IMG/VR virus record: IMGVR_UViG_3300044971_004534
DNA from: a virus
DNA: 64,000 bases
Reading direction: 5' to 3' (one strand)
The position numbers and the translations under genes were made by a program. Under the pieces are notes generated by a model. The model was not told the DNA's origin and searched no databases. It saw only the letters and a list, made by a program, of their open reading frames with translations. Below, piece after piece: positions 6,500 to 21,059 of the stretch. Each line of letters begins with the position of its first letter. The first letter of the stretch is position 1.

Positions 6500-6510
6500 C
6501 TTTTTCCCCC
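6496..6510 (+). promoter_or_regulatory. intergenic motif copy
   Basis: ctgactttttccccc; 21 nt to ATG 6531. Confidence 0.8.
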
Positions 6511-6530
6511 TGCCCGAAAGGACTTGAGGC

Positions 6531-7118: not shown

Positions 7119-7129
7119 AGAAGGCAACT

Positions 7130-7144
7130 GCCTCGTTTTCCCCC
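7130..7144 (+). promoter_or_regulatory. intergenic motif copy
   Basis: gcctcgttttccccc; 34 nt to ATG 7178. Confidence 0.8.
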
Positions 7145-7177
7145 ACCGCCCACCGCTTTGAGGCAGAAAGGAAACTC

Positions 7178-7723
7178 ATGCCAAACTGGTGTCTGAACAA
7201 GGTTCGTATCAAGGCAAAGCCCGCAACTCTCGCAGCGATCAAGGAAACGCTGAAGGGCAAGGAGTATGTTCGCCCCTTCAACTTTGAGAAGCGAGAGGAT
7301 GGCGAACTCACCTGTGTGGACAGCATCTTCTGCTTCCACAGCATCATTCCGCAGCCTGACGAGATTCTCGACCCGGAAGATCCGCGCCGCAAGGCAAAGA
7401 TGTCATCTGCGGAGATTCTTGAGCGTCTGTCCAAGAAGGAAGAGAAGGGTATGCCAGAGTGGTGGAACTGGCGTGTCAACAACTGGGGCACGAAGTGGTC
7501 GGTGAACGGAGAGGACATCGGATTTGAGGAGAAGAAGGGTTCAATGATCTACTCCTTTGATACCGCATGGGCACCTCCTGAACCCGTGATCCAAAAACTG
7601 TCGGAGATGTTCCCCGATGCGAACATCCTGCTCTCGTTTTACGAGCCGGGGTGTATCGGTCGCGGAAGCGTCACCTACAAGGATGGCGAAATCATCAAGA
7701 CAACCGGAGTGGGCGTTGACTGA
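7178..7723 (+). CDS. DUF1281 / Api92-like protein (tentative)
   Basis: N-terminus MPNWCLNKV is the hallmark I associate with this family. Confidence 0.5.
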   Translation: MPNWCLNKVRIKAKPATLAAIKETLKGKEYVRPFNFEKREDGELTCVDSIFCFHSIIPQPDEILDPEDPRRKAKMSSAEILERLSKKEEKGMPEWWNWRVNNWGTKWSVNGEDIGFEEKKGSMIYSFDTAWAPPEPVIQKLSEMFPDANILLSFYEPGCIGRGSVTYKDGEIIKTTGVGVD

Positions 7724-7737
7724 CGACGGAATGGGGT

Positions 7738-7769
7738 GGCGGGATGAAATACTCCCGCCGCCTCGTTTT
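7738..7769 (+). terminator. terminator-like hairpin
   Basis: GGCGGGA-tgaaatac-TCCCGCC, then gcctcgtttt. Confidence 0.55.
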
Positions 7770-7774
7770 CCCCC
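7760..7774 (+). promoter_or_regulatory. intergenic motif copy
   Basis: gcctcgttttccccc; 21 nt to ATG 7795. Confidence 0.8.
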
Positions 7775-7794
7775 TGCCCGAAAGGACTTGGAGC

Positions 7795-8229
7795 ATGAGC
7801 AACTCAACCTACGAGCGCGAAACGGACATCATCCTCAACGGTATCTCCCTGAAGTCCGCACCGGGCTGGAAGATCGACCTGACCCTGAAGGTCAAGTACG
7901 AGTGGGTGCGTGGCGGCATCGGAGCCTACGAGTTCTGGGGAGCGCGTGGTGTGGACATCGGTGGCGGATGGGAGTGGGTGGAGTACGGCGTTGAAGGCAT
8001 CAAGGCTTCCAACGACAGCGGAACCGTACTGACCGCTACCAACAGCCAACAGTTCAACCCGGATTTCGTCAGCGGTGTTCTCTCTGACTACGGGATCAAC
8101 CTGTACGAATGGCTGAACGAGATCAACGACAGCGAGATCATCCAAGACATGATTATCGACAAGTGTCCTGATTGGACTGACCCCCGCTATGACGGGATGC
8201 CCGATGACAACTCACCTGATGGAGACTGA
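7795..8229 (+). CDS. hypothetical protein
   Basis: In-frame ATG exactly 21 nt after motif 7760-7774 (track start 7744 rejected). Confidence 0.55.
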   Translation: MSNSTYERETDIILNGISLKSAPGWKIDLTLKVKYEWVRGGIGAYEFWGARGVDIGGGWEWVEYGVEGIKASNDSGTVLTATNSQQFNPDFVSGVLSDYGINLYEWLNEINDSEIIQDMIIDKCPDWTDPRYDGMPDDNSPDGD

Positions 8230-8230
8230 T

Positions 8231-8431
8231 ATGGAACCCAAGTACCCAAACATCACCGTGCAACTGGTTGGACAGGACGGCAACGCTTTCGCCATTCTTG
8301 GTCGCGTTCAGAGGGAAATGAAGCGTGGCGGCGTTCCTCGCAACGAGATCGACAACTTCATGTCAGAGGCAACGAAGGGCAACTACGATGAACTTCTTGT
8401 CACCGTTATGAAGTGGGTGGAAGTGGAGTAA
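8231..8431 (+). CDS. hypothetical protein (66 aa)
   Basis: In-frame ATG 1 nt after the previous stop, with GGAGA SD. Confidence 0.55.
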   Translation: MEPKYPNITVQLVGQDGNAFAILGRVQREMKRGGVPRNEIDNFMSEATKGNYDELLVTVMKWVEVE

Positions 8432-8438
8432 GGCAACT

Positions 8439-8453
8439 GCCTCGTTTTCCCCC
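8439..8453 (+). promoter_or_regulatory. intergenic motif copy
   Basis: gcctcgttttccccc; 21 nt to GTG 8474. Confidence 0.8.
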
Positions 8454-8473
8454 ACCGAAGGAGGTGTTGCATC

Positions 8474-8872
8474 GTGGACGCAAAGCACCCGATCAGAAAC
8501 TTGGTATACGAACGCATGACAACTCTCGCATCGTGCACCGTAGGAACGATTGATGTCCTCAACGAGATGCTCCCATCTCTTGAGAATGACGAGATCGACC
8601 CAAACGCGATTGCGTTTCAGACGGATGAGTTCCGTGCGATGATGAAGGAGACCTACAGCGGTCAGCACATTGCTATGGTTCTGTATCCGAACGGACAGAC
8701 CATGCACCGCAGGTTCTACTGTTGGTATGTCAGCACCGAACACAACAAGAGCGGAAATGCGTGGATGATCCTCACCCACCGACATCCCGACTTGTTCACG
8801 AAGGGCAAGATCATGCGACCTGATGACTTCACAAAGAGCATGGCACTGCTTCAGACGATGGAAACCAAGTGA
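8474..8872 (+). CDS. hypothetical protein
   Basis: GTG start exactly 21 nt after motif 8439-8453, with GGAGG SD. Confidence 0.5.
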   Translation: MDAKHPIRNLVYERMTTLASCTVGTIDVLNEMLPSLENDEIDPNAIAFQTDEFRAMMKETYSGQHIAMVLYPNGQTMHRRFYCWYVSTEHNKSGNAWMILTHRHPDLFTKGKIMRPDDFTKSMALLQTMETK

Positions 8873-8881
8873 GGCACCGCA

Positions 8882-9187
8882 ATGAAGATCAAGAAGGCAA
8901 TCGCTGAACTCAAGCGTTTGGAGAAGGAGTTTGGAGGAGATCAGCACATCTGCTGCTTCTATGTGTGTCCAAACTTTGTAATCGACTCTGCAAGTCATCA
9001 AGACAAGTCCATTACCGCAGAAATCGCGGGAAAGATTCTGAAGGAAGTGATGGCAGAGGAGGAGCGCGAAGGACATATGTTCCGCGTGTTCTCCGATCTT
9101 GTCGATGCCTACATCGCTGATTACGACCCTGACCCCCTTGACGATCTCGTAGACGCAGCAAAGTCCAAGAAGAAAGGCAAGAAATGA
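8882..9187 (+). CDS. hypothetical protein
   Basis: ORF track; C-terminal DPLDDLVDAAKSKKK resembles the tail of the next gene. Confidence 0.5.
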   Translation: MKIKKAIAELKRLEKEFGGDQHICCFYVCPNFVIDSASHQDKSITAEIAGKILKEVMAEEEREGHMFRVFSDLVDAYIADYDPDPLDDLVDAAKSKKKGKK

Positions 9188-9447
9188 CGCATCCTGCAAA
9201 CAAGCAAACCGCTGATTTCCTCCTCAAGCAGCAGCGGCGTGTGTTCACCATCGACCTAACTGCCCTTGATGTCGCTGACCATCTTGGTTGCAGCGAGGAG
9301 CGCGCAGAGCGTGTCATTGAAGATATGTCTCACAACTGCGATGCTCTGTTTGACTACATCTGGAACCTTGTTGACGAGTGTGCAACGGGGATTCCTGAAG
9401 ATCCAATCGCTGACCTGATGGATGCGGCGAAGAAGGACGAGAAGTAA
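9184..9447 (+). CDS. hypothetical protein
   Basis: ATGA overlap with the previous gene; C-terminal DPIADLMDAAKKDEK. Confidence 0.5.
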   Translation: MTHPANKQTADFLLKQQRRVFTIDLTALDVADHLGCSEERAERVIEDMSHNCDALFDYIWNLVDECATGIPEDPIADLMDAAKKDEK

Positions 9448-9450
9448 GCA

Positions 9451-9468
9451 GCCGCCTCGTTTTCCCCC
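9451..9468 (+). promoter_or_regulatory. intergenic motif copy
   Basis: gccgcctcgttttccccc; 64 nt to ATG 9532. Confidence 0.8.
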
Positions 9469-9531
9469 TTCCCCGGTGGGGTTGCGGTGTTGCCCGCCGT
9501 GGGCAGCAGACGCAACAAGAAAGGACGAACG

Positions 9532-9960
9532 ATGACGATGACGAAGATCAGCCTCGATGTGAAGTCGAAGGGTGCTGCGGAGATCGTGAAGGAACTCCTC
9601 AACCTCCCCGAAGGCTTCACCTCCGGTCGCGTGGAAGTGGCGTTCAACTTCACCGCCGACAAGGGTGCGGACGAGACTTACACCGCCGTGCAGGAACTCT
9701 GCCCGTGGACGCTCGTGGCGGTTCTCATGTCCAAGATCAACGGGGTTACGCAGGATGCCGTGATCGACTGCATCCCCACGATCATGGAGATGAACGACAA
9801 GCAGCGCAAGGTGCTGCGCGAGTCGCTGAAGGAGTCCACCACGAAGCGGCTTGAGGAGATGGGCGCATTCGTGCAGAAGGTGCGCTCCGGCAAGACGCGC
9901 ATCGAAGTGGCGGGCGATGCCACCGTGACGGGGGATAACCTCCCGGTCGCAACCGCCTAA
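9532..9960 (+). CDS. hypothetical protein
   Basis: In-frame ATG with AAAGGA 7 nt upstream (track start 9487 rejected). Confidence 0.55.
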   Translation: MTMTKISLDVKSKGAAEIVKELLNLPEGFTSGRVEVAFNFTADKGADETYTAVQELCPWTLVAVLMSKINGVTQDAVIDCIPTIMEMNDKQRKVLRESLKESTTKRLEEMGAFVQKVRSGKTRIEVAGDATVTGDNLPVATA

Positions 9961-9975
9961 CAGACCCCCGGAACG

Positions 9976-10009
9976 GAGGGGAGGCAAGTAGTGCGCCTCC
10001 CCTCTTTTT
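9976..10009 (+). terminator. terminator-like hairpin
   Basis: GAGGGGAGGC-9 nt loop-GCCTCCCCTC, then ttttt. Confidence 0.65.
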
Positions 10010-10014
10010 CCCCC
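10001..10014 (+). promoter_or_regulatory. intergenic motif copy
   Basis: cctctttttccccc; 21 nt to ATG 10035. Confidence 0.8.
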
Positions 10015-10034
10015 TCAACCGGAGTATTTGCGGC

Positions 10035-10148
10035 ATGGACACAATCATCCTCATGCTCATCGGATCGAACCTTGCCTTGATTGGCTACCTGTGCCACAAG
10101 GACATGAAGGGCAAGCGCAGCAAGTCGCGCAGGAAGGCAACGGCGTGA
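10035..10148 (+). CDS. small membrane protein (37 aa, below track cutoff)
   Basis: ATG 21 nt after motif 10001-10014; MDTIILMLIGSNLALIGYLC followed by a basic tail. Confidence 0.35.
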   Translation: MDTIILMLIGSNLALIGYLCHKDMKGKRSKSRRKATA

Positions 10149-10456
10149 AGTCGAACCCTTACATTCAGATGCTTGAACCTCTCATCGGTGGAACGATCAC
10201 GAAGATCATCTACGATGAAAGCGACCCGCATGGTGATCCGTTCTGCGGCTTCATCGTGACGCGACCCGAAGCCGTGTATCAGGTGATTGCCTTGCGTGAT
10301 CCCGAAGGCAACGGAGCCGGGTTCGTGGAAGTGACGAAGGTAAGAACTTGGCTGAAGGACACTTGCGACAAGTGTGGCGGACTGATCAACGGGATTGACA
10401 AGTTCCCCGCAGTTGGTACAATGGGCGTACCGATCTGCACAGATTGCGACAACTAA
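10145..10456 (+). CDS. hypothetical protein
   Basis: GTGA overlap with the 10035 ORF; an alternative ATG exists at 10168; C-terminal CDKCGG...CTDC. Confidence 0.45.
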   Translation: MKSNPYIQMLEPLIGGTITKIIYDESDPHGDPFCGFIVTRPEAVYQVIALRDPEGNGAGFVEVTKVRTWLKDTCDKCGGLINGIDKFPAVGTMGVPICTDCDN

Positions 10457-10466
10457 TCCTTTCTGC

Positions 10467-10510
10467 GAAGGGAGTGCGTTCCGAAGTGAATGCGCTCCCT
10501 TCCTCTTTTT
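10467..10510 (+). terminator. terminator-like hairpin
   Basis: GAAGGGAGTGC...GCGCTCCCTTC (one G.U pair), then ctcttttt. Confidence 0.55.
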
Positions 10511-10515
10511 CCCCC
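10501..10515 (+). promoter_or_regulatory. intergenic motif copy
   Basis: tcctctttttccccc; 39 nt to ATG 10554. Confidence 0.8.
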
Positions 10516-10553
10516 TGTTCCCCGCCTCTTGGGTTGTCGAAAGGAGACAACGA

Positions 10554-10805
10554 ATGGGTTACAAGCAGATTGGTCGCCTCATCGTTTCGCAAGATGAGAG
10601 CGAGTGGATTGACATCAAGCGTCCGTGTGTCGTGACGGGTGAACCGTACAGCGTCAGCGTTCGCCGCACCGATTGGGATGCGTGGAAGGGCGGCAAGTTG
10701 GCGCAACTTGCGTTCCCTTACCTCTCCCGCGAGGATCGTGAGTTCATCATCAGCGGAACCAGCCCGCAAGGTTGGGAGGAGTTGTTTGGAGGTAACGATG
10801 AGTGA
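10554..10805 (+). CDS. hypothetical protein
   Basis: In-frame ATG with GAAAGGAG SD, 39 nt after motif 10501-10515. Confidence 0.55.
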   Translation: MGYKQIGRLIVSQDESEWIDIKRPCVVTGEPYSVSVRRTDWDAWKGGKLAQLAFPYLSREDREFIISGTSPQGWEELFGGNDE

Positions 10806-10938
10806 TCCATCGCTAGACCCCTCTGACGAGGACAACTACGACGGCGGCGAGTTCTTCTACGAGGAGCCGTCTGACGAGCCAATGTGGGAGCCAAACGAGT
10901 TCTACACCGATCCCATGTACGGGTCGGAAACTTTCTAA
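10798..10938 (+). CDS. small acidic protein (46 aa)
   Basis: ATG overlaps the previous stop by 8 nt; the product is D/E/P/Y-rich. Confidence 0.4.
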   Translation: MSDPSLDPSDEDNYDGGEFFYEEPSDEPMWEPNEFYTDPMYGSETF

Positions 10939-10952
10939 TCTTCTTGCGTCCT

Positions 10953-10994
10953 GCGGGGCGGGGTACTTCCTTTCCCCCGCCCCGCTATCTTTTT
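10953..10994 (+). terminator. terminator-like hairpin
   Basis: GCGGGGCGGGG-loop-CCCCGCCCCGC, then tatctttt. Confidence 0.6.
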
Positions 10995-10999
10995 CCCCC
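10986..10999 (+). promoter_or_regulatory. intergenic motif copy
   Basis: tatctttttccccc; 21 nt to ATG 11020. Confidence 0.8.
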
Positions 11000-11019
11000 T
11001 TTGCCGACAAACTTCTAGC

Positions 11020-11244
11020 ATGGACAAGAGAACTTCCCCCATCAACGGTCTGTACCTCCACGATGTCTACACCGATGCTGCCCGCATCAAGTCGTGCTTC
11101 CCGTGGGCTGATGTGAAGCCCGGAATGGAGATGGAGTGCTGGTCTACTCCGTTCAACTTCCCGTCGCCCACCGATTTCAACATCCTCATGCTGCGAGACA
11201 TGAACGGCGAACTGATCGCCACGAAGCGCGAGGAGGGTTACTAA
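11020..11244 (+). CDS. hypothetical protein
   Basis: ATG 21 nt after motif 10986-10999. Confidence 0.5.
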   Translation: MDKRTSPINGLYLHDVYTDAARIKSCFPWADVKPGMEMECWSTPFNFPSPTDFNILMLRDMNGELIATKREEGY

Positions 11245-11255
11245 ACCCTCTTTTT
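11233..11255 (+). terminator. terminator-like hairpin spanning the stop codon
   Basis: GAGGGTT-acta-AACCCTC, then ttttt. Confidence 0.55.
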
Positions 11256-11260
11256 CCCCC
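11246..11260 (+). promoter_or_regulatory. intergenic motif copy
   Basis: ccctctttttccccc; 39 nt to ATG 11299. Confidence 0.8.
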
Positions 11261-11298
11261 ACCGTGGTAGACTTTTGGGCAGAAAGGAACTTCCCCCA

Positions 11299-11487
11299 AT
11301 GGCTGAACTGCGAGTCACGATCAACCTGAACAACGACGCCTTCCATGTGGACGAGTTCAACGAGGTGTCCCGCGTCTTTGAGAGTCTTGCGCGCAAGGTG
11401 GCGCGAGGCGACATGAGGAACCACGCCATCATGGACTCCAACGGCAACACGGTCGGTTCGTTCACCGTGATTGACGAGGATGCGTGA
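11299..11487 (+). CDS. hypothetical protein (62 aa)
   Basis: ATG with AGAAAGGA SD, 39 nt after motif 11246-11260. Confidence 0.5.
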   Translation: MAELRVTINLNNDAFHVDEFNEVSRVFESLARKVARGDMRNHAIMDSNGNTVGSFTVIDEDA

Positions 11488-11708
11488 TGGAGTATCCCAA
11501 CAAGTGCATCAAGTGCGGAGAGGTTCACCAAGACCCCAACGCAGGACGATGGACGGAATGCAGGGAGTGCGAGGCTCGTAGCCCAAGAGTCATCACCCCT
11601 TCCTACTTCCATTTCGTGACGGGAATGACAGACGAACAACTGGAGGCAACCTATGAAGCCCAACGACAACTCGTCCTCAACCACAAGCGGAACAAAGTGC
11701 GGATGTGA
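11484..11708 (+). CDS. hypothetical zinc-ribbon protein
   Basis: ATGA overlap with the previous gene; CIKCGEV...CRECE. Confidence 0.5.
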   Translation: MMEYPNKCIKCGEVHQDPNAGRWTECRECEARSPRVITPSYFHFVTGMTDEQLEATYEAQRQLVLNHKRNKVRM

Positions 11709-11826
11709 CGGGTGTGACGGGTCATTCGATCCCGATGCCCTCACGGAGTGCAGGTACGACTATCCCGATGAATCGTGGGAGTGGTTCAAGTTCTGCCCCG
11801 ATTGCCTCAAGGCTGACGCATTCTAG
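11653..11826 (+). CDS. possible small Cys-rich protein (57 aa), overlapping alternate frame
   Basis: Hand translation ...KCGCDGCDGSFDPDALTECRYDYPDESWEWFKFCPDCLKADAF; GGAGG 6 nt upstream of the ATG; 56-nt overlap with 11484..11708. Confidence 0.3.
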   Translation: MKPNDNSSSTTSGTKCGCDGCDGSFDPDALTECRYDYPDESWEWFKFCPDCLKADAF

Positions 11827-11832
11827 GCAGCC

Positions 11833-11847
11833 GCCTCGTTTTCCCCC
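11833..11847 (+). promoter_or_regulatory. intergenic motif copy
   Basis: gcctcgttttccccc; 34 nt to ATG 11881. Confidence 0.8.
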
Positions 11848-11880
11848 TGCCTCGCACCGCTTGGGGCAGAAAGGAAACTC

Positions 11881-12198
11881 ATGCAGCCCAAGTATGTGAA
11901 CCTCACCGACAAGCCCGCTGACTACTCCGACAACAACGGTCACGGTCAGCCCACCCACCTCCAGTCGCGTAGCACCGGAAGGTGGATCAAGACTCCCGAT
12001 GGCTACTGCCGTCGTGACGATGGCATCATCTCCCACAAGTACCTCAAGAACGAGGAAGGCGAGTGGGAGTGGTTCCCCGTCCCGTCTACGGAGGAACTCA
12101 ACTTCATGGCGTTCGACTCCGTGTGCCAAACGCCGTGGGGCGACGATGTGGAACCCGATCACCCCAAGTCGTGGCTCCGCATCTTGGGAATGATCTGA
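11881..12198 (+). CDS. hypothetical protein
   Basis: ATG 34 nt after motif 11833-11847, with GGGGCAGAAAGGA block. Confidence 0.55.
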   Translation: MQPKYVNLTDKPADYSDNNGHGQPTHLQSRSTGRWIKTPDGYCRRDDGIISHKYLKNEEGEWEWFPVPSTEELNFMAFDSVCQTPWGDDVEPDHPKSWLRILGMI

Positions 12199-12249
12199 AC
12201 CCCCGGAAGGGATGGGGGAGTTGATGGCAACATCCTCCCCTGTCCTTCC

Positions 12250-12263
12250 TCTCGTTTTCCCCC
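12250..12263 (+). promoter_or_regulatory. intergenic motif copy
   Basis: tctcgttttccccc; 39 nt to ATG 12302. Confidence 0.8.
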
Positions 12264-12301
12264 AGTCGGGTAGTTTTTCGGGCAACAAGAAAGGTACTTC
12301 A

Positions 12302-12523
12302 ATGAACGACACCCTCCTCAGCATCTTCATGGCTTGCGACACGATCAAGGCGACCATCCTTGAGAACGCTCAACTCAAGGAGGAGAATGCTCAACTCCGT
12401 GAGCGCATCAAGGCGGCTGACGCTGCGCGTGATGAGGGATTCCGTTCTGCGGAGCGGTATCACGAGGAGATGGTGAAGTCCCTGCTCAGCGGGGAACTCA
12501 TCGTCAACAGGGGAGGAAACTAG
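12302..12523 (+). CDS. hypothetical coiled-coil protein
   Basis: In-frame ATG with AGAAAGG SD, 39 nt after motif 12250-12263. Confidence 0.5.
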   Translation: MNDTLLSIFMACDTIKATILENAQLKEENAQLRERIKAADAARDEGFRSAERYHEEMVKSLLSGELIVNRGGN

Positions 12524-12529
12524 GCAACC

Positions 12530-12544
12530 GCCTCGTTTTCCCCC
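12530..12544 (+). promoter_or_regulatory. intergenic motif copy
   Basis: gcctcgttttccccc; 52 nt to ATG 12596. Confidence 0.8.
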
Positions 12545-12595
12545 TTCCCCGCTCCCGTTAGGACACAGCCCCAAAGGGGCAGAAAGGATCGCAAG

Positions 12596-12958
12596 ATGAA
12601 GAAGATGCTCGTTATCAAGATGAACGGTCAGGTGGAGGAGCGCGAGAACACGGGTCTGGAGTCCCTCCAGTCGGGTGTCGGTGGCTGGATCGAAGGCATC
12701 GACTTGGGCAACGGCGCGATGATGTACTGCAACGAGGAGGGCAAGTGCAACGGTCTGCCCGCTAACCTCGTCGCTACGCGCCTCTACGAGAACGCATTCG
12801 GCAAGGGCATCGACATCGTCGTGGGCGATGTGGTCATCGTCGGCTACATCTCCCCCTCCGGTGAGAACGACGGCGAGGACTACGACTACCCCGCGTGGGT
12901 GTCGGACGCAGCACGCAAGGAAGCGGAAGCGTTCGCACCGCGCTGCACGGTGTCGTGA
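12596..12958 (+). CDS. DUF3846-like protein
   Basis: LQSGVGGWIEGIDL...YCNEEGKCNGLPAN...GDVVIVG matches my recollection of DUF3846. Confidence 0.6.
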   Translation: MKKMLVIKMNGQVEERENTGLESLQSGVGGWIEGIDLGNGAMMYCNEEGKCNGLPANLVATRLYENAFGKGIDIVVGDVVIVGYISPSGENDGEDYDYPAWVSDAARKEAEAFAPRCTVS

Positions 12959-12968
12959 ACAAGAGAAG

Positions 12969-13003
12969 GGGAGGGAGTCGAAAGGCTCCCTCCCTCTCTT
13001 TTT
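12969..13003 (+). terminator. terminator-like hairpin
   Basis: GGGAGGGAG-tcgaaagg-CTCCCTCCC, then tctcttttt. Confidence 0.6.
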
Positions 13004-13007
13004 CCCC
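12994..13007 (+). promoter_or_regulatory. intergenic motif copy (4-C variant)
   Basis: ctctctttttcccc; 40 nt to ATG 13047. Confidence 0.7.
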
Positions 13008-13046
13008 TCGCACCGCACTGCTTGGGGCAGAAAGGAAAGCAACAGA

Positions 13047-13217
13047 ATGGGTAAGGGAATGATTCGAATCGCCGTAGTGATCTGTGTGGCGTTCACCGTG
13101 TCTGCCGCCATCATGTGGGCATTCATCAACTGGCTAGACGCCAATCCCGTAGTGGTGGCTGGGTTCCTTGGAATGGGCTACGCAAGCAACCATTTCTTCA
13201 ACCCACCGCGCCGCTAG
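13047..13217 (+). CDS. small membrane protein (56 aa)
   Basis: In-frame ATG after GGGGCAGAAAGGA; two hydrophobic segments. Confidence 0.45.
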   Translation: MGKGMIRIAVVICVAFTVSAAIMWAFINWLDANPVVVAGFLGMGYASNHFFNPPRR

Positions 13218-13285
13218 CACCGAAGCACCGCACCGCGCACCGCTTTTCGCGGGGAAGGGAATCTAGGGGAACAAATCCTCTTTTT

Positions 13286-13299
13286 CCCCTCCCCGCCAA
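13286..13299 (+). promoter_or_regulatory. intergenic motif copy (4-C variant)
   Basis: tcctctttttcccc; 26 nt to ATG 13325. Confidence 0.7.
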
Positions 13300-13324
13300 G
13301 CCGTTGGAACAGAAAGGAACCCCC

Positions 13325-13552
13325 ATGAACGAAGAATGGTGGAAGAACACCAAGCCAGACCCGGTCAGGAGTGGCTACAGCGTGGTCGATACGGTCACGC
13401 TGGAGGAACGCGAACTCTCCGTACATGACGCAAACCACCGCTTGCAGCAGGAATGCAACTCCCTGCGGGCGAAACTGCGAAACATGGAGGAGCAGATCAA
13501 GAAGTTGCAGATCGAACGCGACCTGCTCATGCAGATCGTTCTCAAGAAGTAA
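13325..13552 (+). CDS. hypothetical coiled-coil protein
   Basis: In-frame ATG after CAGAAAGGA. Confidence 0.5.
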   Translation: MNEEWWKNTKPDPVRSGYSVVDTVTLEERELSVHDANHRLQQECNSLRAKLRNMEEQIKKLQIERDLLMQIVLKK

Positions 13553-13578
13553 GCCACATACGGCTCACTTCCACCTGT

Positions 13579-13593
13579 GGCTCGTTTTCCCCC
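13579..13593 (+). promoter_or_regulatory. intergenic motif copy
   Basis: ggctcgttttccccc; 40 nt to ATG 13633. Confidence 0.8.
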
Positions 13594-13632
13594 TCTCCCT
13601 CCCCTCTTGGGGAGCAGAAAGGAAGAAACGCC

Positions 13633-13791
13633 ATGAAGTCAGTCGTAGACATCGCTCGCAAGATCGCGTGGGAGACTCGCAGGGACGAGATCGCTGCGGG
13701 TCGTCGCGTCCGCTCCAAGACTTGGGGCAAGAAGTCGCGTGATCCCCGCAAGGCACGACGCGAAAGCAGGCGCGAACTCTCGCGTATGTAG
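13633..13791 (+). CDS. small basic protein (52 aa)
   Basis: In-frame ATG after GCAGAAAGGA, 40 nt after motif 13579-13593. Confidence 0.4.
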   Translation: MKSVVDIARKIAWETRRDEIAAGRRVRSKTWGKKSRDPRKARRESRRELSRM

Positions 13792-13808
13792 AGCGCGCCC
13801 AAGCAGCC

Positions 13809-13823
13809 GCCTCGTTTTCCCCC
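13809..13823 (+). promoter_or_regulatory. intergenic motif copy
   Basis: gcctcgttttccccc; 52 nt to ATG 13875. Confidence 0.8.
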
Positions 13824-13874
13824 TGCCCCGCTCCCGTTGGGTCAGCCCCAAAGGGGCAGAAAGGACGCTGCAAC

Positions 13875-14078
13875 ATGAAGAAGCAGCACGACGCGGGTTT
13901 CGGGTGCATGGGGGACACGGTGGAGGTGGAGGCGCGTGTGACCGGCAAGGGCGGGCGGTCGTGGACGAGCCTCGACCGCAAGGTGGAGGCGGAGGGGCAG
14001 AGCCTCGCCTACATGGGTCGCCTGTGGTTCTGCGGCAAGGTCTGGGAATGCCCGACCCCTGAAACCGCCCTCGCCTGA
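13875..14078 (+). CDS. hypothetical protein (67 aa)
   Basis: ORF track; 52-nt leader class. Confidence 0.45.
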   Translation: MKKQHDAGFGCMGDTVEVEARVTGKGGRSWTSLDRKVEAEGQSLAYMGRLWFCGKVWECPTPETALA

Positions 14079-14099
14079 AGCGGCGGAACCGTCCCCGAA

Positions 14100-14121
14100 G
14101 GGGAGCCGAAAGCGGCTCCCC
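14100..14121 (+). terminator. GC hairpin (weak T tract)
   Basis: GGGGAGCCG-aaag-CGGCTCCCC. Confidence 0.4.
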
Positions 14122-14147
14122 TTCCTCATTTGGTGAACTAGGCAGCC

Positions 14148-14162
14148 GTATCGTTTTCCCCC
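14148..14162 (+). promoter_or_regulatory. intergenic motif copy
   Basis: gtatcgttttccccc; 54 nt to ATG 14216. Confidence 0.8.
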
Positions 14163-14215
14163 TGCCTCGCTCCCGTTGTGGTGTAGCCCCAACGGGGCAG
14201 AAAGGATACGCAAGA

Positions 14216-14698
14216 ATGGACAAGCAGCAGAAGATGTCGGCTCTCGCGCAGATCATCGGGAGCAACCCGCAGAAGGCGGAGTTCGCGGCGAGCCTCCTGG
14301 GTGCGCTGGCGAAGGGCAACCCGACCCCCAAGCAGGCGGAGTGGATCGACCGCCTCATCAACGAGGAAGCGAACCCCGTCCCGTCGCTCACGCTCGCCCC
14401 GCTCGTGGAGGCGTTCCGCGCAGCGGCGCAGGCGGTCAAGTTCCCGAAGGTCGTCGTGGAGGCTGACGGCGTGGAGTGGACGCTCTCGTACACTCGCCCC
14501 GACTCCGACAAGGCGAAGCCCGAGAACAAGGACACGGTGGGCATCGCATCGGGCAAGTGGGGCGACCCCGCCGCGAAGTGGGCAGGGCGCATCCTCGCGG
14601 ATGGCACGGTGAAGTGGGGCAAGGACGCGACCCCCGCTCTCGCGGACGCCATCGCCGCCATCCCGACCGCTCCGCTCCCCCTCAAGACGCGGAAGTGA
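14216..14698 (+). CDS. hypothetical protein
   Basis: ORF track; 54-nt leader class. Confidence 0.5.
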   Translation: MDKQQKMSALAQIIGSNPQKAEFAASLLGALAKGNPTPKQAEWIDRLINEEANPVPSLTLAPLVEAFRAAAQAVKFPKVVVEADGVEWTLSYTRPDSDKAKPENKDTVGIASGKWGDPAAKWAGRILADGTVKWGKDATPALADAIAAIPTAPLPLKTRK

Positions 14699-14706
14699 AC
14701 AGCGGA

Positions 14707-14741
14707 GGGGCGGGAGTCGAAAGGCTCCCGCCCCTCGTTTT
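14707..14741 (+). terminator. terminator-like hairpin
   Basis: GGGGCGGGAG-tcgaaagg-CTCCCGCCCC, then tcgtttt. Confidence 0.6.
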
Positions 14742-14746
14742 CCCCC
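14732..14746 (+). promoter_or_regulatory. intergenic motif copy
   Basis: ccctcgttttccccc; 52 nt to ATG 14798. Confidence 0.8.
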
Positions 14747-14797
14747 TGCACCGCACCCGTTGTGGTGTAGCCCCAACGGGGCAGAAAGGATCGAACG

Positions 14798-15061
14798 ATG
14801 CCCAAGTGGATCGTCGGAACGCAGTACATGGAGAACTACGGCGACAGCGAGAAGCCGTACTGGAAGGCGAAGGGCGGCAGCGACTACGCCGTGGAAGCCG
14901 CAACCGCCGCCGATGCGGAGCGCGTGGTGCAGGAGAAGAAGTGCCACAAGACCGACTACTCCGAGGAGTACATCATCGGCACCACGATCCCCTACGAGCA
15001 GTTCGTGCAGGAGTGCCGCGACCACCCGTGGATGATCGAAGGGGTCGAAACAGTCGCCTAA
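14798..15061 (+). CDS. hypothetical protein
   Basis: ORF track; 52-nt leader class; last gene of the GC-rich array. Confidence 0.5.
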   Translation: MPKWIVGTQYMENYGDSEKPYWKAKGGSDYAVEAATAADAERVVQEKKCHKTDYSEEYIIGTTIPYEQFVQECRDHPWMIEGVETVA

Positions 15062-15093
15062 TCAACGGGAGCCACACGGCTCCCCATCCTTTC

Positions 15094-15134
15094 CGCCCTG
15101 TCCCCCTAAAGGAGGACGGGGCGTGTTTCTTTGC
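15094..15134 (+). terminator. terminator closing the GC-rich array
   Basis: CGCCCTGTCC-loop-GGACGGGGCG (one G.U pair), then tgtttctttgc; preceded by a second hairpin at 15067-15084. Confidence 0.55.
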
Positions 15135-15144
15135 ATAGGCAGAA

Positions 15145-15222
15145 AGCCGGTATGGAAGAAAGCAGCGAACAGAGACAGCCGGTATCGAAAGAGTTTGCAG
15201 AATCGGACAGCCGGTATGGAAG
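15145..15222 (+). repeat. 3 direct repeats (iteron-like), 32-bp period
   Basis: agccggtatggaag at 15145, agccggtatcgaaa at 15177, agccggtatggaag at 15209. Confidence 0.8.
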
Positions 15223-15258
15223 CATCCAAACCAACGGTCTGAATCCATCCAAACCAAC
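15223..15258 (+). repeat. 2 direct repeats, 23-bp period
   Basis: catccaaaccaac at 15223 and 15246. Confidence 0.7.
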
Positions 15259-15339
15259 TGGGCAGCATGGCAGGTAGCCAAAGGGTCGTACACTATACCC
15301 CCCACCCGGGGGTGCTTATATAGGGGTGATTTGGCTGGA

Positions 15340-15354
15340 GGGGGATACCTTAGC
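15340..15354 (+). promoter_or_regulatory. GGGGGATACCTTAGC box, copy 1
   Basis: Identical 15-mer at 15433; shorter copy at 16228. Confidence 0.45.
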
Positions 15355-15432
15355 CCCTCTTCTCTTTTTTGTAATAAATCCTGGTTTAAAAAATAGGGGC
15401 ATAAAAATATAAGATTTATGATTTTGAAAAAA

Positions 15433-15447
15433 GGGGGATACCTTAGC
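15433..15447 (+). promoter_or_regulatory. GGGGGATACCTTAGC box, copy 2
   Basis: 46 nt upstream of ATG 15494; preceded by TTTTGAAAAAA. Confidence 0.45.
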
Positions 15448-15493
15448 GGGAGTGTATGAATGGTAATATTTTATTTTTACGGGGGGTGTGTAA

Positions 15494-15856
15494 ATGCAGG
15501 AACAGACTGATGTTATACACAAGCAGCTTGTGGGTTACGGGATAGAGATAGGGCTTCTTATTTCAGGTTTCTTTGGGGCTTTGCTCCTTGTTTCGAAGAA
15601 CGCATCGCAGCGCATGGGGGCAACGGTTGCGTCGCTTCTTGCGGGAACTGCGTGTGCAAACTACCTGACGCCTGTGGTCCTGAACTTTCTTCCTGAATCC
15701 ATCAGGGCTCAAGGAAAGTACGCTGCTGCCTTCATGATGGGATTCATGGGGTTAAAGGGCTTGGAGCTGATGATAGACAAATTTGTTAAAAAGGAAGAGG
15801 AGGGCGGGAAGAAGAATCGTTCCCGTTCATCCACTAAGAGAAAGGGCAAGTCATGA
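15494..15856 (+). CDS. membrane protein with charged C-terminal tail (holin-like architecture)
   Basis: About 3 hydrophobic segments, then KKEEEGGKKNRSRSSTKRKGKS. Confidence 0.45.
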   Translation: MQEQTDVIHKQLVGYGIEIGLLISGFFGALLLVSKNASQRMGATVASLLAGTACANYLTPVVLNFLPESIRAQGKYAAAFMMGFMGLKGLELMIDKFVKKEEEGGKKNRSRSSTKRKGKS

Positions 15857-16179
15857 ACGTGATTTCTGTGATAAACGCTGTTGTCAACGGGGTAATGGCG
15901 CTTGGTTTTAGTGCATTTCTGGTGTTCCTGTTTGGAAGAGAGAATTCCCTTATTCATAAATTGGGTAATATGAATGTTATTTTCGTGAAGATCATCCTGA
16001 GCATGTGTGCTTCTGGGGCTCTTTACAATGCGTGCATACTCCACGAGCCAGCGCCTTCGGAGCTGTTGCTTAATGCGGGTGTTGCCGCGCTGTTTTGCTG
16101 GGCTTCCGTATTCCATTACATGCGATTCGTGAAGCCAATTAAGAAAAAAGCGGCAAAGAAAAAAAGACGCACAAAGTGA
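15853..16179 (+). CDS. membrane protein with basic tail
   Basis: ATGA overlap with the previous gene; about 3 hydrophobic segments, then KKKAAKKKRRTK. Confidence 0.45.
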   Translation: MNVISVINAVVNGVMALGFSAFLVFLFGRENSLIHKLGNMNVIFVKIILSMCASGALYNACILHEPAPSELLLNAGVAALFCWASVFHYMRFVKPIKKKAAKKKRRTK

Positions 16180-16227
16180 TTACTTAAACAAGGAATGCTA
16201 GCGCAGACAGTTCACTTTTTTGTAAAA

Positions 16228-16240
16228 AGGGATACCTTAG
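16228..16240 (+). promoter_or_regulatory. AGGGATACCTTAG box, copy 3
   Basis: 40 nt upstream of ATG 16281; preceded by TTTTTTGTAAAA. Confidence 0.4.
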
Positions 16241-16280
16241 TGAATTGGGGCAATAGTAAGATTTGGAGGAAGTATTACGC

Positions 16281-17102
16281 ATGCATACGATTATCAATAC
16301 GCTAAGGGGTCGCTTCGTGCACGGGAAGGACGAGAGCGAGTACTACGAATCAATCATAAAAAACGTCCATACGGGAATGGATCACACGTTCTGCTTTTCC
16401 GTATGCAACACTGAATTGCCAGAGATTCCTCCGGGAACAATTGTATTTTCTACATCTGACGAACACCACAGGCAGCCCATACCGAACCACTTGCAGGAAA
16501 ACGTTGGGATACTTTTGAAGACTTTTTTCCCCAAGGAAGGGGTGACTGACCATCGTGTGCTGCCGTTTCCTCTGGGTTATTTCACGGATTTTGGGGGCCA
16601 TGCGCTTACTCCTATTGCGGAGAGAGGTCTTGACTACTCGTTCTACGGTGCTCACAACGACAATGGTCGTGACAAGCTGCACGGATGGCTAAGGAAGCGA
16701 AAGGGGGACGGATGCAAGAAGGAGTGGGGTTTTTACGAAGGTTGGGGCAAGGGAAAGGGGATGTGGGACTACGGTTCGCTGCTGACGAAGACAAAGATCG
16801 CTCTTTGTCCTCCTGGATACGTGAGTCCTGAATGCGCAAGGCTTCCAGAAGCTGCTCGCTGCGGTTGCGTCCTTCTAGTCCCGAATGACTTGCCCACGCA
16901 TCTATGGTATTTCCAGGGGTTTCCTGGGATAAAGATTGAAGACTGGTCGAACCTGAAGATTGTTGACGAACTGCTTGCAGATCCTAAAAGGATGCAGGAC
17001 ATCAGCGACGAAACAGTGAAATGGTACAACAGGTGCATTGATCCAAAAGCCGTGGGTGCATGGCTTACGGAAAGGATCAAGGAAAGAATCCAAAAGGCAT
17101 AA
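16281..17102 (+). CDS. exostosin (GT47)-like glycosyltransferase (tentative)
   Basis: ATG after GGAGGA; LPFPLGY...SFYG...KIALCPPGYVSPECARLPEAARCGCVLLV resembles the exostosin C-terminal pattern. Confidence 0.45.
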   Translation: MHTIINTLRGRFVHGKDESEYYESIIKNVHTGMDHTFCFSVCNTELPEIPPGTIVFSTSDEHHRQPIPNHLQENVGILLKTFFPKEGVTDHRVLPFPLGYFTDFGGHALTPIAERGLDYSFYGAHNDNGRDKLHGWLRKRKGDGCKKEWGFYEGWGKGKGMWDYGSLLTKTKIALCPPGYVSPECARLPEAARCGCVLLVPNDLPTHLWYFQGFPGIKIEDWSNLKIVDELLADPKRMQDISDETVKWYNRCIDPKAVGAWLTERIKERIQKA

Positions 17103-17105
17103 ACT

Positions 17106-17591
17106 ATGCAGTACAAATTATCTAAAAGCGAATGGCTCAAAATAGGCGAACAAGCTGGATGGCTGAGGATCAGCGGGGAACAGGCAGTCCTGACGAAGCA
17201 GGGGAAATCAAATGTTGCTGGTGCGGTCTTTCAGGTGATGCGTAAACCCGAGATAGCAAAGAGGATCATTGAACTTTCTAAAATCTGGAATTCCAATTCA
17301 AGCGAGTTTAGCAAGAAGCTTCAAGATCTGGAGCAAGAGATCGTTGTTGACTATCATAATTTTTTGGACACAGGAGCATCAGAAGATTTGTTCATTGACC
17401 GAATCGAGTTACGGAGTATCATTGAAAAAATCATCTATAAAATGCTTGAAGTTGGCGACTTGGGAGTTCGGGAAGCAGGCGAACAAGCTGGATGGCTGAA
17501 GGAAGCCAAGTGCTGGAAGGGCTACAAAGCCGTTGGCATGAAGAAGAAAAAGGGCAAGACCGTTCCCAATTGCGTCCGCAAGGAGAGCTGA
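17106..17591 (+). CDS. hypothetical protein with long N-terminal leader module
   Basis: MQYKLSKSEWLKIGEQAGWL at the N-terminus; the GEQAGWL core is repeated near the C-terminus before the CWKGYK...PNCV tail. Confidence 0.6.
   Translation: MQYKLSKSEWLKIGEQAGWLRISGEQAVLTKQGKSNVAGAVFQVMRKPEIAKRIIELSKIWNSNSSEFSKKLQDLEQEIVVDYHNFLDTGASEDLFIDRIELRSIIEKIIYKMLEVGDLGVREAGEQAGWLKEAKCWKGYKAVGMKKKKGKTVPNCVRKES
17145..17166 (+). repeat. 22-nt perfect intragenic direct repeat (copy 1)
   Basis: ggcgaacaagctggatggctga; copy 2 at 17478-17499; both encode GEQAGWL. Confidence 0.85.
17478..17499 (+). repeat. 22-nt perfect intragenic direct repeat (copy 2)
   Basis: Identical to 17145-17166. Confidence 0.85.
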
Positions 17592-18437
17592 ATGGGTTGG
17601 CTCAAGGCGGCGCAGACAAGTGCATGGGGCCAGAACACGAGCAGGGGTGCAAGGGAAATCTACACCGCATTGCGTGAACGTGCCAATCCCCACAGGAGCA
17701 GCGCTGAGCTGAATAAAAAATGGGGGGAGGAAATAGTGAAGATACCGGGTTACGTGTCCCGTTGGTCCGGTGGCAGCTGGGCATACGTGGACTACGACCC
17801 CCAGAAGCGAAAGAACACCGACAGGATGAATCCACTTGCCCACAAGGGAATGGAGTGGAAGCTGTACTTTACCGTCAATCCAAAGGACGGGGGCGCGGAG
17901 AGCATGGGAAACACCCTTGAGGCGTTGAAAGACCTTCCGAGACAGCTGGAGGCAAACCTTGGTCCTCATGGCGTCGCCCTTCTCTACAAGATCCCTGGAA
18001 CCTGGAGTGGATTTTTGCGGGAGAACGACACAGTCGTGATGTATCACCCGTTCGAGCCTCGCAGCAGGTGGACGGACTTCATCTCTTCCGTTGTTCGTGG
18101 CTGGATGGGCAAATGGGGACTGGAGGAAGGGAAGCGTTCGTACAACGAGGGCTTTGACTGGCACGAGCAGACGGAGTACAGGGACGGAACGCAGGTGGAG
18201 CACAAGGAGATGACGGACAGGCTGGGATGGCTGAAGCCAGAGGGATTCATTGCCATGGGGCTGGAAAGGGGTGGTGGATCATTTGGCACTACATTGGCCC
18301 GCTTCATGGAACTTGTTGGCAAGAACCCTGATGACCCGCGCTGGAAGGGCTTGGTGAAGGGGGGAGAGATCAGTATGAAGGAAGCAGCAGACTGGCTTAT
18401 TGGGCACGGCAAAGAGGTAGCACAGGAACTGATGTGA
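17592..18437 (+). CDS. hypothetical protein with short leader (MGWLKAAQ)
   Basis: ATG directly follows the previous TGA. Confidence 0.6.
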   Translation: MGWLKAAQTSAWGQNTSRGAREIYTALRERANPHRSSAELNKKWGEEIVKIPGYVSRWSGGSWAYVDYDPQKRKNTDRMNPLAHKGMEWKLYFTVNPKDGGAESMGNTLEALKDLPRQLEANLGPHGVALLYKIPGTWSGFLRENDTVVMYHPFEPRSRWTDFISSVVRGWMGKWGLEEGKRSYNEGFDWHEQTEYRDGTQVEHKEMTDRLGWLKPEGFIAMGLERGGGSFGTTLARFMELVGKNPDDPRWKGLVKGGEISMKEAADWLIGHGKEVAQELM

Positions 18438-18460
18438 CGAACACCTGTTTTGTTTTTTGT

Positions 18461-18494
18461 ATCCCCCGAAAAATTATGGAGGGGGATTTTTATT
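18461..18494 (+). terminator. terminator
   Basis: ATCCCCC-13 nt loop-GGGGGAT, then ttttatt. Confidence 0.5.
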
Positions 18495-18662
18495 ATATTG
18501 TTCTGGTTGAAAAAACATCGACCTGTTGAGATGCCCCTAAAAAAATTTTTGGCGCGTTAATACTGGGTTACTGATGGAGGGGGCGGAAATTTTTATAATC
18601 ATCATAAGACCAAAAGGGAAAGACTATTAATCAAAGCAATATAATAAATAGGGAGACTCAAT

Positions 18663-19601: not shown

Positions 19602-21059
19602 ATGAAAATACTACTCGCAATTTTAGTAAGTGCTCTTATCGTAAACGGTTCTGAATTTAAGAAAAATACAACAAACAAGAACGTCGTAACCGCCACGGAA
19701 ACCCAGGTGAATACGGCGTTTGTCGGTTTTAATGACGGCGTTTCTCTGGAGGACAAACAGAGGACTATTGCATCTCTTGGGAACATGATTGAGTCTGCAC
19801 ATTATTATGAAAATATCCCCAATTTGGCACTTGTCGTTGTTTCGAGTAACTTTATAACTAACATAGCAGACGTGTCAAGTGCACTTGAAGGAAATGAGAC
19901 TGTTTCATTCTTTGAAATGGACAGAAGATTTACCGCAACATACAGCGAAGTGATTCCAAACGATGCCGGATTCTCACAATGCTGGGGTCACAGAAATACC
20001 GGAGCTTCTGGTGGACTGGTAAACTTTGATATGAATACAACAAATGCATGGTCTATTACTCAAGGACAGCCAACGGTAAAAATACTTGTCTTTGAGACAG
20101 GAATACAGCAAGATCATCCAGATATAAATCAACTGCCAGGAAGAGACTTCACAACAGGTGCAGTGAACGGAGTAAGCGGCGGTGGACCAAGCAACTCTTG
20201 TGACAATCACGGGACTGCCGTTGCAGGATGCATTACAGGCATTATCAACAATTCAATAGGAACCGTGGGAACTGCACCAAATTGCAAAGTCATTTCCGCA
20301 AAAGTTGGCACAGCAATCACTCCATGCAATGGGTCGTGGCAGGGGCAAACATCATGGACTGTAAATGCTATTAACTGGGCAATCGGCAATGGAGTAAGGG
20401 TAACAAACAACAGCAATGATTACGGCACAGCTTCTACGGCAATGTCAAATGCATATTCTGCCGCAAAAAATGCTGGAATAGTTAATTTTGCAAGTTCTGG
20501 AAATTCTGGAAACACTTCTATTGGTTTCCCAGCAAGTGCTTCTGCGGTGAACGCAGTTGGTGCAAGCAGCAGAAACGGACAGAAAGCTTCTTTTTCGTCA
20601 TACGGCACAAAGCTCGCTTTTGTTGCTGCTGGCCAATCGGTTTACACCACAGACAGGACGGGATCAAATGGATACTCTTCAGGTGACTATTCACTTATTG
20701 ACGGAACTTCTTTTTCTTCCCCATATGCCGCTGGTGTCGCAGCACTTATCATTTCAGTGAACCCATCACTTTCTGCAGCACAGGTTGAGTCCATTATGCA
20801 AACAACATGCAAGGACATGGGAGCAGTAGGATTTGACACTCTTACTGGATGGGGAATGCTGAATGCAGAAGCTGCCGTGCTTCTTGCTCGCCCTGTTCCA
20901 TGCCCAGCAGATTTAAATGGAGACAGGTCTGTCAATGGAAGCGATCTTGGTCAATTGTTGTCTTCATGGGGTTCATCTGGATCTGACCTTACTGGAGATT
21001 CAGTCGTCAATGGCGAAGATTTAGGCGTTCTTCTTTCTGCATGGGGGCCTTGTCCGTAA
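19602..21059 (+). CDS. secreted S8 subtilisin-like protease with I9-like propeptide and C-terminal dockerin-like repeats
   Basis: Signal peptide; HGTAVAG (His), SSGNSG (Asn) and GTSFSSP (Ser) boxes. The Asp box reads VFETGI (Glu in place of Asp). 2x DLxGDxxVNGxDLGxLLSxWG. Confidence 0.85.
   Translation: MKILLAILVSALIVNGSEFKKNTTNKNVVTATETQVNTAFVGFNDGVSLEDKQRTIASLGNMIESAHYYENIPNLALVVVSSNFITNIADVSSALEGNETVSFFEMDRRFTATYSEVIPNDAGFSQCWGHRNTGASGGLVNFDMNTTNAWSITQGQPTVKILVFETGIQQDHPDINQLPGRDFTTGAVNGVSGGGPSNSCDNHGTAVAGCITGIINNSIGTVGTAPNCKVISAKVGTAITPCNGSWQGQTSWTVNAINWAIGNGVRVTNNSNDYGTASTAMSNAYSAAKNAGIVNFASSGNSGNTSIGFPASASAVNAVGASSRNGQKASFSSYGTKLAFVAAGQSVYTTDRTGSNGYSSGDYSLIDGTSFSSPYAAGVAALIISVNPSLSAAQVESIMQTTCKDMGAVGFDTLTGWGMLNAEAAVLLARPVPCPADLNGDRSVNGSDLGQLLSSWGSSGSDLTGDSVVNGEDLGVLLSAWGPCP

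Follow-up and report, generated by a model that had tools for sequence, protein, structure and literature searches.

A conserved non-coding element at a compositional break of an uncultured large phage, tentatively read as a transcription-unit boundary

The 64,000-nucleotide (nt) viral stretch IMGVR_UViG_3300044971_004534, which at its full length is called here the window, contains at positions 15062-15493 a 432-nt interval that is the largest clearly gene-free one in it. A nominal gap of 916 nt (12959-13874) was discounted because public assemblies of this sequence have small genes called within it, so that the first-pass annotation of this DNA was right in giving the interval that rank. The interval carries terminator-like hairpins, phased direct repeats and a core of about 150 bp (15296-15447) with copies of a GGGATACCTT box, and this core recurs in seven distinct phage lineages. 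The features of the locus are as follows:

14705-14736, + strand: terminator hairpin after an open reading frame (ORF) of 160 amino acids (aa), with a perfect 12-bp stem (-33.8 kcal/mol, z = -5.3); a member of the hairpin family of the upstream arm
14798-15061, + strand: 87-aa ORF with which the rightward, high-GC arm ends; its GC content at third codon positions (GC3) is 0.91
15067-15084, + strand: hairpin 1, GGGAGCC/GGCUCCC; a slightly longer repeat unit around its stem is 79% identical to the 14711-14729 hairpin
15094-15133, + strand: predicted intrinsic terminator closing the upstream arm, formed by hairpin 15094-15123 and a U-rich tail
15145-15222, + strand: three 14-mer iterons, AGCCGGTAT(G/C)GAA(G/A), starting at 15145, 15177 and 15209 with an exact 32-bp period
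15212-15258, + strand: two 23-nt repeats (units 15212-15234 and 15235-15257), each with (C)ATCCAAACCA(AC); 35 of 36 positions are identical in lineage L044
15296-15313, + strand: conserved C6/G5 inverted repeat TACCCCCCACCCGGGGGT, start of the core, invariant as ACCCCCCACC..GGGG in seven lineages and found once per contig
15317-15326, + strand: TATATAGGGG, of which ATAGG at 15320-15324 is invariant in the alignment
15339-15354, + strand: box 1, AGGGGGATACCTTAGC, the most conserved motif, with GGGGGATACCTT invariant in seven lineages
15360-15431, + strand: AT-rich spacer with conserved T(G/T)TAAT (15370-15375) and A6-N-G4 (15388-15399), a candidate -10 region or unwinding element
15432-15447, + strand: box 2, an exact AGGGGGATACCTTAGC, 59 nt before the start codon at 15494, and the left-hand junction of the cassette formed by the next two genes
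15494-15856, + strand: holin-like membrane protein, the first gene past the compositional break (phrog_2359 holin, E = 5e-9; 41 related loci)
15853-16179, + strand: 108-aa predicted membrane protein of the same cassette
16226-16241, + strand: box 3, AAAGGGATACCTTAGT, degenerate, 52 nt before the ATG at 16281, and the right-hand junction of that cassette

Relatives were recovered by searching with the holin-like protein and with DNA patterns; eight contigs from independent assemblies were inspected in detail out of the 23 that carry the gene, together with further metagenome contigs. The element is carried by the window, L044, L042/L001, L119, L124, L004/L125 and L126. L044 is collinear with the window over 2273-15453 at 70-80% identity. 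Between lineages the flanking genes on both sides are mostly unrelated, and tblastx coverage of the 6-kb flanks of L125, L126 and L119 against the window is near zero. All seven nevertheless share one layout, namely TACCCCCCACC(1-2 nt)GGGGGT, ATAGG, GGGGGATACCTT and an AT-rich stretch, with a second GGGATACCTT box in six of them. Four blocks are invariant throughout (ACCCCCCACC..GGGG, ATAGG, GGGGGATACCTT, and an A-run followed by a G-run). Since the core is kept in the seven lineages while these 6-kb flanks are dissimilar, the deeply conserved part of the interval is 15296-15447 and not the 14-mers. The AT-rich part with its boxes had been described in the first-pass annotation and is present, although the deepest-conserved components (the C6/G5 repeat, ATAGG and the GGGATACCTT boxes) had only been touched in passing; the sharing by relatives that it had proposed as a check is seen for the core, which stands at the same GC break in all seven lineages. 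Concerning the individual blocks, the inverted repeat at 15296-15313 has an unexceptional folding energy (z = -0.36), and a T-run follows it only in L042 and L119. As for the AT-rich spacer, the recurrent motif TTGTAAT has five of its 17 copies in intergenic DNA on the gene strand, upstream of genes, which suggests a -10-type element at 15370-15375.

The perfect GGGATACCTT (12 nt) occurs in the 64 kb only at 15342, 15435 and 16229, all three copies being intergenic and on the + strand. Exact AGGGGGATACCTTAGC copies had been reported at 15339 and 15432 and are found there, while the third, degenerate copy at 16226 had been overlooked. The A-tract form of the box is confined to this locus, once per 75-84-kb clade contig, and the restriction to a single locus rules out the box as a genome-wide promoter class. 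Relatives have 2-8 copies, including four at 24-bp spacing in L004/L125 and seven in a 59-bp tandem unit between two genes in L126. Boxes proximal to a gene lie 35-59 nt from its start codon, most of these are preceded by an A-tract, and in most of them an A/T-rich hexamer stands 17-18 nt past GGGATA, from which boxes 1 and 2 of the window deviate. The arrays extend over 7258-7450 in L126 and 5826-5912 in L004, with units of the form GGGGATACCTT(A/G)(G/C)TGT(T/A)(C/T)CAC(C); some units contain the inverted pair GATAC-N6-GTATC and some TGTTCACC.

Upstream of the core, the two hairpins at 15067-15084 and 15094-15123, the latter with a T-tract, lie where the first-pass annotation had placed them. 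They fold jointly with -38 kcal/mol (z = -4.3), a value equalled by 0 of 200 shuffles, and the second is followed by GUGUUUCUUUG, so that 15094-15133 combines the stable GC-rich hairpin and the U-rich tract of an intrinsic terminator. L044 keeps 26 of the 30 positions of this second hairpin, with a stem that is longer and compensated there. Window 14755-15092, comprising the 87-aa gene and hairpin 1, has no counterpart in L044 and represents an insertion relative to it. Hairpins of one family (GGGAG..CGAAAG..CTCCC) follow small genes of the upstream arm at 3935-3958, 9976-10004, 12969-12994, 14097-14124, 14705-14736 and 15067-15084, and terminator hairpins of this arm are often followed by TTTTTCCCCC. 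Farther downstream, the intergenic region 18438-18662 has a terminator stem, GTATCCCCC...GGGGGAT, in which the first half of the box forms an inverted repeat, and one more copy of TGGAGGGGG.

The holin-like gene, with a G-run Shine-Dalgarno sequence at 15481-15486, and the 108-aa gene lie between boxes 2 and 3. L044 12799-13176 aligns to window 15093-15453 and L044 13155-13275 to window 16224-16342, and the two alignments overlap within the box; boxes 2 and 3 thus delimit the cassette, which is an insertion/deletion. A recombination seam, as had been proposed at first pass, is thus directly supported, since junctions of the cassette between relatives fall here, and recombination at the box itself is deduced from this one clear case. 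In the distant relatives L006, L008, L014, L016, L022 and L027, the holin-like gene is placed directly, or within ~1.5 kb, after an array of up to 12 transfer RNA (tRNA) genes; four of these also have a permuted transfer-messenger RNA (tmRNA), with a terminator hairpin, a T-run and TATACATA behind it.

Our favoured reading of these features, still somewhat short of probable, is that the interval may be the terminator, operator and promoter junction, or transcription-unit boundary, of a gene-shuffling (hyperplastic) region. Transcription of the accessory arm would end at 15094-15133, and a dedicated sequence-specific DNA-binding protein would recognise the box as an operator or activator site. 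Once bound, this factor would govern transcription of the following block, which opens with the holin-like gene and continues with the 279-aa gene and a paralogous family, from one or more promoters flanked or overlapped by the boxes. The 14-mers and the TCCAAACC repeats would serve as lineage-specific upstream sites for a second factor; 32 bp being about three helical turns, the 14-mer copies would lie on one face of the helix. Boxes and repeated terminator hairpins would double as recombination points, because they are short sequences common to otherwise unrelated cassettes. The sigma factor gene of the phage (58075-58908), the footprint of kept repeats and diverged spacers against L044 and the absence of a structured RNA from the region also speak for this reading. 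Several points weigh against such a boundary. The genes downstream of the core also differ between lineages, which leaves no evident essential operon for so conserved a promoter. The nearest -10-like hexamer keeps no single distance from the box, being ~30 nt away for box 1 and 23 nt for most of the other boxes, and box 2 of the window fits poorly; with such inconstant spacing the box is no simple -35 element, and this candidate role was downgraded to that of a generic, putative protein-binding site. Finally, an invariant non-coding island amid hypervariable flanks would equally suit an origin, a packaging site or a genome end.

Between the terminator and the core lie the phased repeats from which the first-pass annotation had drawn its layout of an origin, partition site or packaging region. 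Three 14-mers at a strict 32-bp period, starting at 15145, 15177 and 15209, were confirmed and exceed chance, as a phased triple with at most two mismatches arose in 0 of 2000 shuffles of the 432-nt region; the two copies of CATCCAAACCAAC 23 bp apart are likewise present, at 15223 and 15246, within the 23-nt repeats. Against L044, 36 of 42 positions are identical in the 14-mers (86%) and 21 of 36 in the spacers (58%; Fisher p = 0.0067), and the 32-bp period is exact in L044 too, the two lineages being ~75% identical overall. However, 14-mers are present in the window and L044 lineages only. Absence of the repeats from relatives had been named at first pass as evidence against its own proposal; as they are gone from five of the seven lineages that keep the element, the 14-mers cannot be an essential part of it. 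In L042 and L119, the corresponding position holds one palindrome with the TCCAAACC motif, (GG)TTTGGA-N4-TCCAAA(CC). Being better kept than the spacers in L044 and absent from most lineages, the 14-mers look like selected yet lineage-specific binding sites, putative on the strength of these comparisons, in a repeat-prone spacer. It is less easily believed, if still to be reckoned with, that they are functionless, left over from a 32/64-bp tandem duplication that is decaying in a spacer prone to slippage. Such a history would agree with the unrelated tandem repeats that occupy the same position in other lineages, (GGCA)12 and (GCGCCCTCGCCCT)6 in L004 and (GCAGCCATGCAG)n in L126, with a longer common 29-nt repeat shared by units 1 and 3 at 64-bp spacing, and with the five lineages that do without iterons. 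Decay is made less likely by the higher conservation of the 14-mers than of their spacers, by the exact period retained in L044 and by a copy number that is constant among eight near-identical strains, which differ by single-nucleotide polymorphisms only.

Scans of the collection with plain 14-mers returned mostly chance matches. The iteron core GGTAT recalls the reverse complement of part of the box (ATACC), a likeness of 5 nt only that is not kept in the iterons of L044 and was put down to chance. A small ORF or repeated peptide in the iteron region was also rejected: the repeat region is non-coding because the 32-bp period places the copies in different frames and because substitutions relative to the closest relative, L044, have no third-position bias; in addition, 1-nt indels occur in the core (L004, L126).

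The interval lies exactly on a compositional break between modules, as the first-pass annotation had claimed, and relatives have the same seam. GC content is 0.66 at 14-15 kb, 0.48 at 15-16 kb and 0.30-0.40 beyond 21 kb, and the drop coincides with the element in every lineage. An assembly chimera was ruled out as the cause of the break, since independent lineages and samples show it at this same element. GC3 describes a sawtooth, from 0.57 at position 219 to 0.93 at 14216-14698 and down to 0.56 at 15494, and after the element decays to about 0.2-0.3 by ~21 kb (0.19-0.34 beyond 19 kb). A climb of GC toward the element is found in L044, L042 and L124 as well. Over the 25 kb upstream, GC amounts to 47-59% (the sawtooth is listed for window 1-25000 and also for L137, L044, L042 and L124). 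The sawtooth is the most unusual aspect of the locus, and reflects either a positional process acting here or the newest high-GC acquisitions adjoining the element. It is a doubtful thought that the core marks a fixed site of DNA breakage or gene entry, of which the sawtooth would be the evolutionary footprint. Candidates for such a site are a genome end, the limit of a terminally redundant stretch and a spot where new genes preferentially insert. The gradient could then stem from GC-biased gene conversion concentrated beside the site or from differences in age, with the newest high-GC genes nearest to the element and older ones drifted to the low GC of the phage. If positional, the GC3 cliff could show how DNA ends or gene-acquisition hotspots shape the base composition of phages.

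As for the layout proposed at first pass, its repeats are genuine, phased and better kept than the spacers (p = 0.007), and the seam is recurrent, but an adjacent initiator, ParA/ParB or terminase gene was not found. That the interval is a replication origin is unlikely, yet it has several features in its favour. The GGGATACCTT boxes, here together with the 14-mers, would be initiator iterons, and the AT-rich stretch 15360-15431, between boxes 1 and 2 and ~140 nt from the 14-mers, would unwind, possibly primed by a transcript; in T4 and T7, origins are primed by a transcript from an adjacent promoter. The 14-mers, as putative binding sites, supply the at least three phased direct repeats (32 bp) that an iteron origin calls for. 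The sites are direct, in the same orientation and at one locus per genome, the arrays of relatives (24-33-bp spacing) stand beside AT-rich DNA, and the core is kept despite variable flanks. GC skew also steps from ~0.04 to ~0.18 at the element, between genes that are co-oriented on both sides, and the cumulative slope rises at 15 kb. The skew nevertheless stays positive on both sides without ever reversing, and the large shift in GC3 confounds the step; the skew check suggested by the first-pass annotation thus gives a shift of slope at the element and none of sign. Moreover, searches of Pfam and PHROGs revealed no adjacent initiator, primase or helicase, the neighbours being small membrane proteins and ORFs without matches. 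The single DnaA-box-like 9-mer lies inside the next ORF and is by our estimate at chance level, and most lineages do without the 14-mers.

A packaging signal or DNA end, whether a pac or cos site or the internal edge of a long terminal repeat, is a still weaker candidate; a pac/cos region or physical end had been among the proposals made at first pass. In one variant, the element could be an injection stop like Repeat Region 3 of phage T5, and the high-GC arm would then be terminally redundant or the part of the DNA that enters first or last. The T5 iss region likewise pairs conserved, untranslated repeats with small ORFs of low conservation (10.1101/866236), GC3 and skew shift sharply at the element in several lineages, and the arm holds families typical of early or anti-defence regions (DUF932, DUF6011, DUF3846, DUF1281_C). 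Against an end, the eight inspected contigs and the further metagenome contigs span the element; this read-through is a weak test, because assemblies collapse terminal repeats. Contig ends cluster instead 1.7-2.9 kb downstream, where public contigs of near-identical strains repeatedly end after the holin-like gene, and neither core nor box is repeated at the opposite end of an 83.9-kb contig that stops 393 nt past the core. No terminase was recognised beside the element or among about 60 window ORFs tested, many of which had no match at all, and paired DnaA boxes are absent. Many distant holin loci start near the gene, and contig ends were tried as a sign of a terminus; they were rejected, as these contigs open within unrelated genes upstream, or the gene comes after tRNA/tmRNA arrays, and contigs of the clade span the element.

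Least likely of the functions weighed at any length, and improbable in our view, is an RNA leader, in which transcription would start just past the C6/G5 repeat and the boxes would act as Shine-Dalgarno-like ribosome docking or 5' stabiliser sites. Local genes do use G-run Shine-Dalgarno sequences, the boxes open with GGGGG, and in the distant L011, L027 and L028 the holin homologue has a ribosome-binding region, AAAGGAATACC-ATG, that is similar to box AAAGGGATACC-TTAG. Nine more invariant positions (ATACCTTAG) nonetheless exceed what pairing with the anti-Shine-Dalgarno sequence needs, arrays of 4-7 copies are unlike known stabilisers, and no conserved RNA structure was found. Searches of the region gave no Rfam match at the gathering threshold or at E <= 1 and no tRNA or tmRNA, and its fold has z = -0.9. 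A partition site, also suggested at first pass, is not supported, since no ParA/ParB- or ParM/ParR-type families were found among the flanking ORFs.

The window derives from an uncultured large phage, probably of a freshwater habitat, as no similar cultured phage was found, related contigs reach 200 kb and exact proteins recur in many public samples. Specifically, the longest related contigs measure 162 and 200 kb, one gene of the clade is indexed in 159 blocks of a public assembly collection, and neither DNA searches nor searches with two large proteins returned a cultured relative. Public datasets in which the phage is present include SRR21892049, SRR21892046, SRR21892044, SRR9302965, SRR27500693, DRR125123 and JGI 3300042945. 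Sequence searches of the PDB with four large ORFs gave no match. A host call was rejected: a 56%-identical holin homologue was found only in a river Bacteroidota metagenome-assembled genome, and the strong Shine-Dalgarno sequences speak against using that match.

The upstream arm of ~32 kb has about 60 small genes, all convincing ones on the + strand and thus rightward, toward the element. Its families are typical of plasmid leading or phage early regions (DUF932, DUF6011, DUF3846, DUF4259 and DUF1281_C). DUF5983, DUF6915 and UvdE were additionally seen in window 2056-12958 and L137, all co-oriented toward the element. Directly downstream follow, in order, the holin-like membrane protein (phrog_2359), the second small membrane protein, a 279-aa protein, paralogues with a common N-terminus and a subtilase; farther on there are an SNF2 helicase, an endolysin-like protein, a thymidylate synthase, a sigma factor, a ribonucleotide reductase and a dUTPase. 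The phage sigma factor gene (58075-58908; phrog_351, E = 8e-21) adjoins an HNH endonuclease and genes of nucleotide metabolism.

Otherwise unrelated proteins share an N-terminal motif, MQYKLSK(S/E)EW..IG..AGW(L/F/M)KIA, MNW(Y/W)K.A(Q/R) or MGW(L/Y)K.AQ, which may be a targeting or packaging signal. Genes with this motif start in the window at 17106, 17592, 18663, 19200, 21629 and 27958, with the subtilase gene (19602-21059) among them, and also occur downstream of the boxes in L119, L124 and L126. A strain-variable spot was noted at window 17100-18440 and in L129-L134, where a 161-aa paralogue is swapped for a 50-aa ORF in some strains, and it breaks assemblies.

The clade is common in public runs and metagenomes and almost none of its genes are annotated. 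An invariant non-coding core amid gene turnover offers a starting point for its transcription programme, its regulator, its origin or its DNA ends; should the element prove to be merely a promoter/operator region, the result would be a useful, ordinary annotation.

Among known systems, iteron-type origins include lambda ori and the oriR of plasmids RK2, pSC101 and P1. The element resembles them in its direct 12-20-bp sites, helical phasing, AT-rich neighbour and single locus, and differs in that neither an adjacent nor an overlapping initiator gene was found, host-factor sites were not recognised and the skew does not reverse, and in that the phased 14-mers are not clade-wide. Terminase sites with repeated binding sites for the small subunit are represented by the R sites of lambda cosB, SPP1 pacL/pacR and the hexamers of P1 pac. 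Like these, the element places several short repeats in ~100-300 bp of non-coding DNA at a module boundary; unlike them, it has no terminase genes found nearby, and contigs read through it. Repeat Region 3 of T5, the injection stop signal of the left terminal repeat, measures 1.2 kb and lies inside a proven 10-kb terminal repeat with eight paired DnaA boxes (10.1101/866236). Both regions are conserved, untranslated, composed of direct and inverted repeats and adjacent to a block of poorly conserved small ORFs, whereas DnaA-box pairs are missing here. Finally, the promoter-early stem-loop (PeSL) motifs are composite terminator/promoter motifs in the hyperplastic regions of T4-type phages (PMC2839356, PMC4122927). 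As with PeSLs, short conserved regulatory motifs are repeated between small ORFs of a hyperplastic region (the boxes at 15339, 15432 and 16226 and the hairpin family), and insertion/deletion junctions of relatives fall in the motif, the boxes bounding the holin cassette. PeSLs combine a sigma-70 early promoter with a stem-loop and occur in many regions; the box, in contrast, has an unrelated sequence, is found at a single locus, forms tandem arrays in relatives and keeps no fixed distance to a -10 hexamer. By analogy, the element may work like a PeSL while neither belonging to that family nor being homologous to it.

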